In this document: piece after piece, positions 43,922-49,117 of the stretch
How positions within the stretch are numbered: position 1 is the first letter of the stretch
How the letters are laid out: each line of letters begins with the position of its first letter
NCBI GenBank assembly: GCA_963705295.1
Contig: OY970065.1
Location: forward strand, 2,048,001 to 2,112,000
From: Parachlamydiales bacterium
Lineage (GTDB): Bacteria > Chlamydiota > Chlamydiia > Chlamydiales > Rhabdochlamydiaceae
Direction of reading: 5' to 3'
Length of the DNA: 64,000 nucleotides
Made by a program: the position numbers and the translations under genes
The notes under the pieces: generated by a model
The model's input: only the letters and a program-made list of their open reading frames with translations
What the model was told of the DNA's origin: nothing
The model's database searches: none

Positions 43922-44122
43922 ATGGCCAAGAAAGGACCTAAGAAAACCACCAAAGGCGTCATGGCAAAAGTGACCTGCCCGATGTGCAAAAAGAGCAGAG
44001 ATGTCAAAATGCCCGCAGCTTGCAGAACATCAATGAAGTGTCCTAGCTGCAACAAGACAATGAAAGCCAAAGACTGCTGCGTTTTCTGTGACTACAGCAA
44101 TAAGAAATGCAGGTCTTGTTAG
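43922..44122 (+). CDS. Small Cys-rich GDCCVxC-like metal-binding protein
   Basis: TCPMC..MP..C...CPSC...KDCCVFCDYS..C; GA-rich RBS. Confidence 0.8.
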   Translation: MAKKGPKKTTKGVMAKVTCPMCKKSRDVKMPAACRTSMKCPSCNKTMKAKDCCVFCDYSNKKCRSC

Positions 44123-46816: not shown

Positions 46817-49117
46817 ATGCCTGGAATTCCCCCTAGTTTTAGCAACGAAACGATCGAAGCATTGAGTCGGCCTCCCACACTCCAAAAATATTCTATGAAA
46901 AAGGCCCAGCTCAAATTGTTTTATATCGTTATTTTCTTACTCGTTGGATTTGCTGCGCTCAACTGCTTCAAAAAAAGGGAGAAAACAACCTCTGCACTCA
47001 TTCACTTAAAATCACCCTTAGATGATTTTGTTGGACGGAATATGATTCTGAGTGAATTGGAAACCGGTTTACTTCCTAAAAAAGATTGGAATTCGCATCA
47101 ATCATCCCGTCTCACGGTATTGTGGGGACCTGGAGGCGTCGGCAAGAGCGAACTTGCTTGTTACTTCGCCAATCGGCATTTAGACAAATTTTCTCTCATC
47201 TTTTGGATCGATAGTGAAACCGTTGAGACACGAACCCGTTCCTATCGACAGCTCGCAAACCTCTTGGGAATTTTTCCAAGTTCCAGGGCAAGTCTCGACG
47301 AGCTCACCATGGATATTTTTTTCAAACTGGGGAACAGTAGCCTTGAAAAACCGTGGCTTCTCATCTTGGACAACGTGGAGGAATCCCTACCTTTGCCACA
47401 GCGAGGCGGATCTATTCTCGCAACGTCGATTCGAAGAGATCTTTGGCCTTCTTCAGCCTCTTGTGTTGAGGTCAATCCTTTCAGTGAAACTGAAGCCGTG
47501 AGCTATCTGAAAAAAACAATACGGCAAGACGATACCGCAAGTATGCAAGCACTTGCTAAAGAGTTGGGGTATTTTCCCTTGGCTCTTGGGCAAGCTGCTG
47601 CCTATATCACCGATGCAATGATTCCGATTGCTGAATACCTTCAAGCTTTCAGAGAAGATCGTAGCCTGATTTTATCACCCCTTCTTAAAACCTGGAATCT
47701 CACTTTAAAACGTTTAAAAAATGACCATCCCCTCGCCTATGAATGGCTCAATATAGCAGCCCACCTCGATCCATCGCAGATCCCTTTCCAATGGATCCAA
47801 GATTGGTCAAAATCACGAAAAACGAGCTGGGATATTCTCCGTGTTCTCAAGAATTATAGCCTGATTCAATGCAATACCGACTCGTTTTCTGTGCATCATT
47901 TGATGCATCAAGTGATCTACTCACAGCAAAAGATGGAAACTCTGAATTACTATCAAAAGGCTTTTACATTGGTCAACACCAACCAGACAACCGATACATG
48001 GCTTTCTCATGCAACCCGCATCGTGAAAAATGGGAATCTTCTATCTCTAATAGATAGGCACCAGCAGAAACAACTATGGGACAAGATCGGGGATATAAAA
48101 ATGTGGATCGGTGATGTTTCTGGGGCTAAGGAGGCTTATGTGCACGCAATGGAAGAGACAGAGCACCTTGAACGGGCAACTTCCCTCTTCAAAATAGGTA
48201 AAGCAGTTTTTTTTCTCGGAGAAGAGTCGCTTTCCTATTTTGAAAAATCTCTGGAGATGAGAAAAGCTCTCGGGGCTTCTGATTCTGAAATCATCGACTC
48301 TCTCAGCTATGTCGGCATAGGAAAATTTTTTAAAGGGAGATCCCAAGAGGCACTGACCGATCTCTTCGAAGCTCTTCGAATGGGAAAAGGAACTCAAAAG
48401 GCTTTTTCTCATCAATGCCTGGGACTCGTTTTGGACAATCTCTCCCGCCACCAAGAAGCACTCGAACATCTTCAAAAAGCTCTCGCACTCTATCGTAGTC
48501 AAAAATATCATCCAGAAATGATCGATACTCTTCTGACCCTGGGAAATACTTTTTGGTCGCTGGAACAACCAGAAAATGCTTTAAAATATTATCAAGAAGG
48601 ACTTGAGATTTCGAAGAAAATCTACGGCTCCATTTCACATCCCCAAACAGCAGGAATCCTCATCAACACGGGGAGTCTACTGAAAAAAATGGGGCGGCAC
48701 AGAGAAGGAAAAAAATACCATCAAGAAGCTTTAGAATTTTATCAGAAATGGTTCATCCTACATCCCGATGAAATGTTTGCCCACTTCAATTTAGGATTGG
48801 CCTTTTACCATCTAGATAAGTACGAAGAAGCCTTGAAGTATTTTCAAGAAGCCTTAGAAATATCTCGTAAAACTCCATCCGATTTTTCTCCCTTATGGAA
48901 CATCGCAGATGTTTTAGCCAAGCTGGGTCGGTATGAAGAAGCCTTAAGCTATTTTCAAGAAAACTTGGATCATTTCCGGAATTGCTTCGAAGGAGATCGG
49001 ATCATACCCATGTGCCTGAAAGATATCGGAGATGTTTTGGTCCATTTGAACCGGCATCAAGAAGCACAAGAAAAATATCAAGAGGCACAGAGGCTTTCTA
49101 TCAAGATATCAGAGTAA
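46817..49117 (+). CDS. TM-anchored STAND (NB-ARC) NTPase with TPR repeats
   Basis: FVGR, GPGGVGKS, WLLILDNV, LGYFPLALGQAAAYI, VHHLM; C-terminal TPRs (EALKYFQEAL). Confidence 0.9.
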   Translation: MPGIPPSFSNETIEALSRPPTLQKYSMKKAQLKLFYIVIFLLVGFAALNCFKKREKTTSALIHLKSPLDDFVGRNMILSELETGLLPKKDWNSHQSSRLTVLWGPGGVGKSELACYFANRHLDKFSLIFWIDSETVETRTRSYRQLANLLGIFPSSRASLDELTMDIFFKLGNSSLEKPWLLILDNVEESLPLPQRGGSILATSIRRDLWPSSASCVEVNPFSETEAVSYLKKTIRQDDTASMQALAKELGYFPLALGQAAAYITDAMIPIAEYLQAFREDRSLILSPLLKTWNLTLKRLKNDHPLAYEWLNIAAHLDPSQIPFQWIQDWSKSRKTSWDILRVLKNYSLIQCNTDSFSVHHLMHQVIYSQQKMETLNYYQKAFTLVNTNQTTDTWLSHATRIVKNGNLLSLIDRHQQKQLWDKIGDIKMWIGDVSGAKEAYVHAMEETEHLERATSLFKIGKAVFFLGEESLSYFEKSLEMRKALGASDSEIIDSLSYVGIGKFFKGRSQEALTDLFEALRMGKGTQKAFSHQCLGLVLDNLSRHQEALEHLQKALALYRSQKYHPEMIDTLLTLGNTFWSLEQPENALKYYQEGLEISKKIYGSISHPQTAGILINTGSLLKKMGRHREGKKYHQEALEFYQKWFILHPDEMFAHFNLGLAFYHLDKYEEALKYFQEALEISRKTPSDFSPLWNIADVLAKLGRYEEALSYFQENLDHFRNCFEGDRIIPMCLKDIGDVLVHLNRHQEAQEKYQEAQRLSIKISE

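Follow-up and report, generated by a model that had tools for sequence, protein, structure and literature searches.

In a 64,000-nucleotide stretch of a Parachlamydiales bacterium genome (hereafter the window; contig OY970065.1, positions 2,048,001 to 2,112,000), a gene for a Clp-like protein (gene A) lies head-to-head with a gene for a membrane-anchored NB-ARC-TPR protein of the STAND type (gene B). That a TM-STAND-TPR protein without an effector of its own, such as B, depends on a separate executor is well borne out as a general idea. As this executor, our data favour a caspase-STAND-TPR protein, whose gene lies about 1.9 Mb from B in genome coordinates, and not the Clp-like neighbour, and A and B look like chance neighbours. 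Taken as a whole, the best explanation is that A and B are independent, that B is partnered with the caspase-STAND and that A acts alone, which we consider reasonably probable.

Genetic organization of the locus

The features of the locus are collected in Table 1. The initial annotation had described A as Clp-like, B as an NB-ARC-TPR protein without an enzyme domain, and both as genes diverging from a 127-nt AT-rich gap and carrying an N-terminal TM helix each. The profile matches bear out the Clp-like nature of A and cover only STAND and TPR in B, the coordinates and GC content of the gap agree, and hydrophobic helices lie at residues 20-38 of A and 32-50 of B. Both accessory genes are also located between uvrC and Asp23 as described, with the corrections that a third ORF, for which no Pfam match was found, is inserted there too and that a conserved hypothetical gene precedes Asp23. 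The left flank is a gene which we take to be uvrC, from the initial annotation and from its sequence features.

Table 1. Coordinates of the features in and around genes A and B (positions in the window unless stated otherwise)
Feature	Position	Strand	Remark
uvrC	42092-43900	+	left core flank of the hotspot
Third inserted ORF	43922-44122	+	66 aa, Cys-rich
Gene A (Clp-like)	44119-46689	-	856 aa; predicted membrane-anchored class I Hsp100 (ClpB/ClpC) derivative
A, second AAA+ ring (D2)	44122-44937	-	intact
A, first AAA+ ring (D1)	45190-46008	-	degenerate
A, membrane region	46030-46632	-	in place of the Clp N-domain; helix 1 (20-38), weak middle (~162-180), helix 3 (~204-220)
A-B divergent gap	46690-46816	none	127 nt, 27.6% GC
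Gene B	46817-49117	+	766 aa; MPx[IV]P peptide, TM, NB-ARC-type STAND, TPR
B, N-terminal MPx[IV]P motif	46817-46831	+	putative docking peptide
B, single TM helix	46910-46966	+	residues 32-50, hydropathy scans
B, NB-ARC-type STAND module	46994-47941	+	
B, Walker A	47126-47149	+	
B, Walker B region	47354-47380	+	
B, TPR array	48044-49102	+	putative sensor, limits approximate
Conserved hypothetical gene	49101-49589	-	162 aa; right core flank
Asp23 gene	49605-50006		beyond the 162-aa gene
Caspase-STAND-TPR gene	G000:C1:184133-186838	-	outside the window; proposed partner of B

Between uvrC and Asp23 lies an insertion hotspot, which is empty in four of 10 relatives and occupied by unrelated inserts in the other six. 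In GC and GC3, both A and B fall inside the range of the genome, and no flanking repeats or terminal inverted repeats pointing to a mobile cassette were found at the locus. The main repeats at the locus are TPR-coding. Furthermore, the gap and the divergent layout are ordinary for this genome and not above chance: 344 of its 1803 neighbour pairs are divergent, and 55 of the 154 divergent gaps of 60-250 nt are at least as AT-rich as this one. The gap contains separate sigma-70-like sites for each strand (three found, against 0.8 ± 1.0 in shuffles).

Independent occurrence of A and B

In the initial annotation, A and B were proposed to form a co-regulated sensor/executor or sensor/disassembler pair, to be checked by synteny and co-occurrence. 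The head-to-head arrangement over 127 nt, the membrane anchors and the accessory nature of both genes are in favour of such a pair, and both families are present in three genomes (G001, G006 and G009), though unlinked there. However, the pair is largely refuted by synteny. No B-type gene was detected with the B-family profile at any of nine A loci (one of them nearly flankless), and no A-type gene was detected with the A-family profiles at any of 29 B loci (0/5 wide and 0/24 narrow) or beside the other nine B paralogues of the source genome. Moreover, gene A occurs without a B-type gene in G002, G022 and G121, 43 of the 45 B-type genomes are devoid of A, and two of the five A-positive genomes are B-type positive (p = 0.10). 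The divergent layout itself is habitual in both families: A is divergent in all eight assessable loci, being head-to-head elsewhere with five other partners (mlaE, an M48 peptidase, a methyltransferase and two unknown genes), and seven of the 10 B paralogues are divergent from their varied neighbours. Thus, a two-gene system is unsupported because the homologues occur independently, the very outcome that the initial annotation had named as speaking against it, and the pair is very improbable. In all probability, the two accessory genes were inserted independently, are transcribed separately and have come together at a hotspot.

Gene B and its paralogues

Gene B has the Walker A, Walker B region, winged-helix motifs and repeat sensor (TPR) of an NB-ARC-type STAND protein, and the best curated match of its NB-ARC region is NF040586 (227 bits, E 5e-67). 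The NB-ARC is preceded by no more than a 30-residue tail and one TM. The source genome has 10 paralogues, B included; the other nine are dispersed, and the neighbours of the 10 are mostly housekeeping genes. Walker A is kept in all 10, and an hhhhDN-type Walker B is recognised by pattern in nine. The MPx[IV]P motif is found at the start of eight paralogues, dispersed and 27-38% identical, which keep it at the exact N-terminus; in a ninth, the motif precedes a frameshift, and paralogue 775939 does not have it. The whole source genome has nine ORFs bearing this motif, of which eight are B paralogues. No shared upstream motif was found among nine B paralogues, the best score being 12.63 against 10.9-12.6 in 12 control sets. 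Among the paralogues, the B of the window diverges most, being 34-38% identical to the others. The tree (98% SH-aLRT) suggests that it may be a chimera of a different NB-ARC lineage, but a topology uniting all 10 paralogues in a single clade is not rejected (p = 0.16).

A caspase-STAND-TPR protein as the candidate executor

The caspase-STAND-TPR gene is present in a single copy in the source genome, and none of the B paralogues adjoins it there. Its product joins Peptidase_C14 to a P-loop STAND module; the His-Cys dyad (H83 and C136) is invariant in 13 of 13 sequences, and the two active-site patterns are found in 43 and 45 of 45 caspase-STAND proteins. Among these 45, the C-terminus is the protein's own TPR in 29, TM–NB-ARC in 15 and truncated in one; the two endings are mutually exclusive, and the fusions diverge at about residue 597, the start of the TPR. 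The caspase-STAND itself has no MPx[IV]P motif and usually sits with a gene for an HTH regulator. Because its C-terminus is a TPR that is exchangeable for TM-NB-ARC-TPR or TM-NACHT-HEAT, it looks more like an executor switched on by an adaptor than like a sensor working by itself.

In 13 other genomes with a caspase-STAND, it is fused to a TM-STAND in four, has an MPx[IV]-TM gene beside it in five and elsewhere in three, and has none in one. Fusion or adjacency is therefore seen in nine of the 13, from five family codes. B-type genes are present in 10 of the 13 caspase-positive genomes and in 35 of 386 others, and TM-anchored NB-ARCs in 10 of 10 caspase-positive genomes and in one of 28 assessable caspase-negative ones (36 genomes, eight of them not assessable; at most four candidates scored per genome), for which the Fisher values overstate the association because the genomes are kin and the genes move in cassettes. 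All seven stand-alone TM-NB-ARCs of caspase-positive genomes start with MPx[IV]. In addition, the gene next to the caspase gene of G252 carries the same peptide-TM cap, here attached to a non-STAND domain. There are exceptions: no B-type gene was found in G371, which has the caspase gene, no caspase-STAND was found in G330, which has a TM-NB-ARC without the motif, and the database proteins P0009 and P0019 have a TM without MPx[IV]. The TM-type NB-ARCs do not form one clade (AU p = 0.00026), which means that the anchor has been acquired or lost at least twice. From these sequence comparisons, B and the single caspase-STAND-TPR of the genome are likely to be functionally linked, and the pattern of fusion and adjacency suggests an alarm network of many sensors and one executor in chlamydia-like bacteria.

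Proposed mechanism and alternative explanations

We assume that a ligand would be bound by the TPR array of B and that the NB-ARC module would then oligomerise, by which the TM helices and the short N-terminal MPx[IV]P tails would be clustered. The tails may dock in the Asn-lined TPR groove of the caspase-STAND, in which N726, N767 and N847 are invariant and N808 is near-invariant among 10 TPR-ending forms, and the tail-bound caspase-STAND would oligomerise, making the His-Cys protease active; in the fused relatives, a covalent link may stand in place of both TPR and peptide. We lean slightly towards this docking, with the ensuing oligomerisation and protease activation. All 15 fusions have more K/R residues on the N-side of the TM, as do eight of the nine other B paralogues, while they are balanced in the B of the window (4 vs 4). 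From this charge bias, it appears somewhat probable that the caspase side is cytoplasmic and the NB-ARC-TPR side lies across the inner membrane. An ATP-binding module outside the cytoplasm is unusual, which counts against such a position of the NB-ARC. The output may well be an alarm for stress or infection that leads to proteolysis or to the death of the bacterial cell, for which the chances seem about even. More tentatively, and with less than even confidence, we imagine a trans-membrane two-STAND alarm in Chlamydiae, in which periplasmic NB-ARC-TPR, NACHT-HEAT or other sensors would signal through a TM helix and MPx[IV]P to a cytoplasmic caspase-STAND with its TPR as the peptide receptor; the source genome would then hold ten interchangeable sensors and one protease, as a membrane-crossing sensor-helper NLR network.

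B and the caspase-STAND could also cooperate with both STANDs in the cytoplasm, the helix being a monotopic or re-entrant anchor (or B being N-out) and the contact being STAND-to-STAND as in a hetero-oligomeric NLR ring. The Walker A retained by all 10 paralogues is most easily explained where ATP is plentiful, and the proline inside several fusion helices and the absence of charge bias in the B of the window are in line with this. However, the helices have 17-19 residues, a hydropathy of 2.0-3.0 and a consistent N-side K/R bias, and neither the loss of the TPR in the fusions nor the cap in G252 would be explained; this arrangement is unlikely.

Another reading is that the B family and the caspase-STAND act on the host as effectors, being exported to the membranes of the inclusion or the host, where they would sense or cleave host proteins, with the motif as a secretion signal. 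This is improbable: the motif is nearly confined to the B family, unlike a general secretion signal, and the caspase-STAND is devoid of it and usually sits with the regulator gene. Such effectors would nevertheless fit the ten-fold expansion within an intracellular lineage and the Pro/Ser-rich N-termini of the B family, as well as a proposal put forward in PMC3417536 that endosymbionts secrete caspase-like peptidases and thereby steer host cell death. The B genes could instead be fission products or relics of a mobile caspase-STAND/TM-STAND cassette that act alone, for example by a TM pore formed on oligomerisation, with shared transfer as the only reason for co-occurrence. The adjacency or fusion in nine of 13 genomes would by itself yield the co-occurrence, one B paralogue is frameshifted, and TM is among the Avs7 N-terminal domains according to a figure legend in PMC13581612. 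Against this stand the eight dispersed paralogues that retain the motif at the N-terminus despite their low identity, and the TM-type NB-ARCs, which are polyphyletic yet track the caspase gene, so that we give relics of this kind a low probability.

Gene A, a putative membrane-anchored Hsp100 derivative

Judged by alignment and profiles, A is a predicted membrane-anchored class I Hsp100 derivative with a dead D1 and an intact D2, separate from B. Its residues from 228 to the end align with the ClpC of the genome (99.9%, E 2.5e-31) and those from 272 with the ClpB (99.8%, E 4e-28), the profile alignments cover the two AAA+ domains and the middle coiled coil over 606 and 587 columns, and the match to ClpC in PDB has an E of 2.9e-49. 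Its curated scores are 37-45 bits against ClpB/ClpC cut-offs near or above 1000, and it is separate from both on the D2 tree. The residues K646, E714, N763, R790 and R839 (Walker A/B, sensor 1, Arg finger and sensor 2) of D2 are present in 33 of 33 homologues, the first Walker B acid being E in 28, D in four and Q in one, and in D1 both Walker A and Walker B are lost in all 33. The initial annotation as a ClpB-like AAA+ protein with a TM is right in the Clp-like part and the N-terminal helix; besides the degenerate first ring, a further conserved stretch of hydrophobic residues around 204-220 has to be added, which has a hydropathy of 1.5 or more in 21 of the 33 homologues. A thus shares with ClpC and ClpB the aligned rings and the invariant D2 catalytic residues, but it lacks the D1 Walker motifs, the soluble N-domain, which is absent and replaced by the region of hydrophobic segments, and the ClpP-docking loop, whose motif is missing in the aligned part of the 33 rows. 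No usable ESM Atlas match was obtained for residues 1-260.

Torsin, Skd3/CLPB and Msp1 are membrane-associated or single-active-ring AAA+ remodellers, and like them A has one working Clp-type ring near the membrane. The weak Torsin and Skd3 profile matches cover only the shared D2 fold, whereas A retains the second, dead ring and the middle coiled coil. The A family comprises 35 clusters at 50% identity, with a patchy, chlamydia-centred distribution. Some candidates for further relatives were rejected: the weak match (E 2e-4) taken for a remnant of A at the mlaE site of the source genome falls in another small gene, encoded on the opposite strand, where it covers a hydrophobic stretch, and the metagenome loci L044 and L045 encode unrelated AAA proteins. 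A would seem, on balance, to work on its own, tethered to the membrane, as a hexameric unfoldase or extractase that needs no protease and in which D2 may drive and D1 may serve as scaffold.

Comparison with known systems

B resembles the Avs and NLR-like STAND-TPR receptors, as outlined in PMC13581612, in combining a STAND NTPase with a C-terminal TPR sensor. It differs from Avs in having no enzyme effector in cis, in its conserved N-terminal peptide, in its relatives fused across the TM to a caspase-bearing STAND, and in its ten paralogues at core-gene junctions, the neighbours of which are mostly housekeeping rather than defence genes. The PADLOC check that the initial annotation had proposed (PADLOC 2.0, 2023 library) gave no Avs/AVAST profile match for B and only generic TPR-type ones at E <= 0.01. 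The TPR protein of the FxSxx-COOH system (NF040586), B's best curated match, is a common name among its database neighbours, but the score is below the cut-off of 300 bits, and B adds the peptide-TM cap. The caspase-STAND has a TPR rather than WD40 at its C-terminus. Many dispersed executioner-less sensors, one executor and some linked pairs are also known from the sensor-helper NLRs of plants, such as the NRC network; however, the linking parts are non-homologous, and here the output is a protease and the link apparently crosses the membrane, which makes this an analogy only. Plant sensor-helper NLR pairs and networks are the subject of PMC9975940.

Significance

No literature on the families of B, the caspase-STAND or A was found by title or abstract start, and no membrane-tethered Hsp100 with one dead ring of the A type in the literature searched. 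Gene A defines a small family of such derivatives, and a false two-gene candidate is removed by our result. The STAND receptors presented in the literature consulted have sensor, switch and effector in a single chain. Here, the fused and the adjacent genes, together with the co-occurrence, speak for a divided arrangement: membrane receptors that have no effector would connect to a common caspase-like executor via a five-residue tag. If true, this would be a bacterial counterpart of the sensor-helper NLR networks, and perhaps STAND signals would even be relayed across a membrane. It would also have a bearing on the sensing of phage, envelope or host cues by obligate intracellular bacteria.

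Genes A and B occur apart from each other

The Clp-like gene A and the STAND-TPR gene B were proposed in the initial annotation to form a two-gene sensor/executor or sensor/disassembler system, and the features on which this was based were all seen, namely the head-to-head layout, the AT-rich gap of 127 nt (27.6% GC) and an N-terminal hydrophobic helix in each gene. Such a divergent layout is ordinary for the genome (G000, a single contig of 2.13 Mb): 344 of its 1803 pairs of adjacent genes point away from each other, and among the 154 divergent gaps that measure 60-250 nt, 55 are equally AT-rich. 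A-family loci came from 5 of 400 class genomes, a further genome (G009) and two metagenome contigs, nine in all, one almost without flank and one ending within the gene; a profile of ten B paralogues found no B-type neighbour at any of the nine, including the nearly flankless one. Outside the window, A is head-to-head with another gene in 8/8 assessable loci, the partner being mlaE (four times), an M48 peptidase, a methyltransferase or one of two unknown genes. With its nine paralogues, B makes up 10 copies in G000; upstream of seven of the ten lies a gene pointing the other way, for instance one for a RecD-like helicase, one for an amine oxidase or another B copy. A-family profiles had no match beside these copies, and none in the B loci read from other genomes (5 wide, 24 narrow). 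B-type NB-ARCs are present in 45 of 399 genomes and in two of the five A-positive ones (p = 0.10). Since the two families are found apart and their co-occurrence gives p = 0.10, the two-gene system is unsupported, and the pairing in the window is most likely due to chance.

The gene for a 162-aa protein was found in 35 other genomes, and its junction with uvrC, examined in 10 of these, is an insertion hotspot: it is empty in four (G001, G002, G010 and G022), filled by unrelated genes in six, and holds A or B in none of the 10. Five of them carry there a family of 430-530-aa proteins, in one case together with a YhcG gene, and G016 has an NYN gene and autotransporter-type genes. These proteins occur in 1-3 copies with signal-like N-termini (L022, L023, L024, L025 and L030 of G004, G006, G005, G017 and G015, respectively), and the single one scanned had no Pfam match. 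In the window, the insert also holds a third ORF, which overlaps the stop of A by 4 nt, has no Pfam match and may resemble small GDCCVxC-type Cys-rich proteins.

Features of the window and of related loci
Feature	Position	Strand	Description
Third ORF of the insert	window 43922-44122	plus	66 aa; between uvrC and A; Cys-rich, several CxxC pairs
Gene A	window 44119-46689	minus	856 aa; Clp-like, second ring of Clp ATPases matched
Gene B	window 46817-49117	plus	766 aa; TPR families and NB-ARC-type STAND profile matched
Ordinary clpB	G000:C1:2047901-2050441		starts just ahead of the window, 44 kb from A
Caspase-STAND gene	G000:C1:184133-186838		901 aa
B paralogue (L057)	G000:C1, near 297158		apparently frameshifted; N-terminal motif out of frame with NB-ARC
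Two B paralogues (L058)	G000:C1:773380-778194		head-to-head, just upstream of hrcA-grpE-dnaK-like genes; plus-strand copy without MPx[IV]P start
B paralogue (L059)	G000:C1:703358-709371		tail-to-tail with LanB-type dehydratase and LanC-like cyclase, directly downstream of clpC
Two Clp-derived genes	G022 L021:1-4131		divergent, near an A homologue
Trio of unannotated genes	L055:4141-5409; L016:6236-8434		about 175, 245 and 150 aa; conserved, between tamB-like and mlaE genes
Gene beside caspase-STAND gene	G252 L119:9939-10676		MPx[IV] peptide and TM on a non-STAND domain
NACHT protein gene	G362 L120:925-6642	same as caspase-STAND gene	1905 aa; weak kinase-like match; directly upstream of caspase-STAND gene

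Gene A is derived from a Clp ATPase

A profile built from 33 homologues of A aligned with ClpC of G000 from residue 228 to the end (99.9%) and with ClpB from residue 272 to the end (99.8%). The best solved-structure matches are ClpC, and the tree does not separate a ClpB from a ClpC origin. When scored against canonical motifs, Walker A and Walker B of the first ring (D1) are gone from 33/33 homologues, with Tyr (18/33) or His (7/33) at its pore-loop aromatic position, while the second ring (D2) keeps K646, E714, N763, R790 and R839 in all 33 and has Glu as first Walker B acid in 28; no ClpP-docking loop was seen in the alignment. In place of the N-domain, A has hydrophobic segments: a strong first helix (27/31), a weak middle one (9/33) and another near residues 204-220 (21/33). 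Thus organised, A may be a membrane-tethered hexamer that would thread or extract proteins by D2 alone, without a protease. The family comprises 35 clusters at 50% identity; its homologues carry the source labels Rhabdochlamydiaceae or Chlamydiales, which suggests that G000 is of chlamydial origin, and the ten clusters looked up are labelled Chlamydiales (two), another order (one, on a short contig), 'hypothetical protein' (one) or unnamed (six). The two Clp-derived genes of L021 have D1-like Walker A and B, a pattern opposite to that of A. The trio of unannotated genes adjoins A homologues in G001 (where it is inverted), G002 and L043.

A probable caspase-STAND partner of gene B

B matches the NB-ARC-type STAND profile NF040586 with E 5e-67, at a score under the profile cut-off. 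Long N-terminal extensions on its relatives share homology with the caspase-STAND, a protein of 901 aa in G000, for which Pfam gave, together with its HTH gene, Peptidase_C14, TPR and HTH. Its first 600 residues were matched in 13 of 399 other genomes, and 10 of these 13 are B-type positive vs 35 of the 386 others (Fisher 3e-8, the genomes being kin and not independent); the caspase gene is absent from five of the six other A-positive genomes. The caspase-STAND is fused to TM-NB-ARC-TPR in G213, G296 and G320 and to TM-NACHT-HEAT in G145. Moreover, a TM-NB-ARC-TPR gene adjoins the caspase-STAND gene in G001, G265 and G157 and is next but one in G123; the TM-type gene is on another contig in G214, G108 and G362. 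The G252 gene beside the caspase-STAND gene bears the same peptide and TM on a domain without Pfam match. Among 45 caspase-STAND proteins of a protein collection that overlaps the genome set, 29 have their own TPR end without TM, 15 have TM-NB-ARC and one is truncated. P0011, the closest full-length relative of B, and P0162, the closest relative of the caspase protein, each lie on a single contig of 38,895 bases, probably the same one. Elsewhere, the P-loop region is partly or wholly lost in some caspase-STAND-TPR proteins, with protease and TPR kept (L097 of G157, L122/L125 of G108 and G123), and in G188 (L066) the same sensor, as a closely related NB-ARC-TPR, lacks the TM and has its effector in cis, a directly fused trypsin-like protease.

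The TM just ahead of the NB-ARC, scored for most B-type places found and for G009, is present in 10/10 caspase-positive vs 1/28 assessable caspase-negative genomes, eight further caspase-negative ones not being assessable. The exception, G330, lacks the N-terminal MPx[IV] motif, and a search of it for caspase-STAND found none. A single clade of TM-type NB-ARCs, a group named only after a first FastTree look, was rejected (AU p = 0.00026; LG+G4, one long row omitted) and five changes are needed on the tree, so the TM/caspase pattern is not one inherited event.

Eight of the ten G000 copies start with MPx[IV], a ninth has it ahead of a frameshift and one is without it; in other caspase-positive genomes, 7/7 stand-alone receptors start with it. 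A genome-wide scan of G000 for this start plus a hydrophobic helix gave nine ORFs, eight of them B paralogues. P0009 and P0019 have the TM without the motif. The fusions depart from the caspase-STAND at about residue 597, the start of its TPR, where Asn is kept at 726, 767, 808 and 847, or roughly once in each repeat. Asn ladders in TPR line peptide-binding grooves. The MPx[IV] peptide of B may dock in the TPR of the caspase-STAND, standing in for the covalent link of the fusions; ligand-driven oligomerisation of B would then cluster the N-terminal tails and activate the His-Cys protease.

Alternatives and relation to known systems

The sensor side of B probably lies beyond the inner membrane. 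K/R is richer on the N-side of the TM in 15/15 fusions and 8/9 other paralogues, and equal on both sides in B of the window; an all-cytoplasmic topology, with both B and caspase-STAND inside, is a less likely alternative. An ATP-binding module beyond the inner membrane could be supplied by the host ATP that chlamydiae take in through the periplasm. Against the link between B and the caspase-STAND stand the exceptions given above and three further results: in G000 none of the B copies adjoins the caspase gene, in the caspase-positive G371 a search for a TM-type or B-type partner gene found none, and no shared promoter motif was found among the B paralogues. Stand-alone action of B is another less likely alternative, as is a role of both proteins as host effectors; secreted caspase-like peptidases of endosymbionts are discussed in PMC3417536.

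With PADLOC, B had no match to Avs. A TM is listed among the Avs7 N-terminal domains in PMC13581612, which also describes tripartite STANDs and notes that Apaf-1 has bacterial orthologues whose N-terminus is caspase-like. For the caspase-STAND family, the only shared PADLOC match was a generic caspase profile. The main text of that paper has no match to 'chlamyd', and its supplementary clade tables may hold this family; a literature search covering few subscription journals found no paper on the A or B families. Gene context gives good support for placing B in a membrane-receptor/caspase-STAND system, and the mechanism is offered as a proposal; the boldest idea, that the two would work as a trans-membrane sensor-helper STAND network, is somewhat less likely than not.
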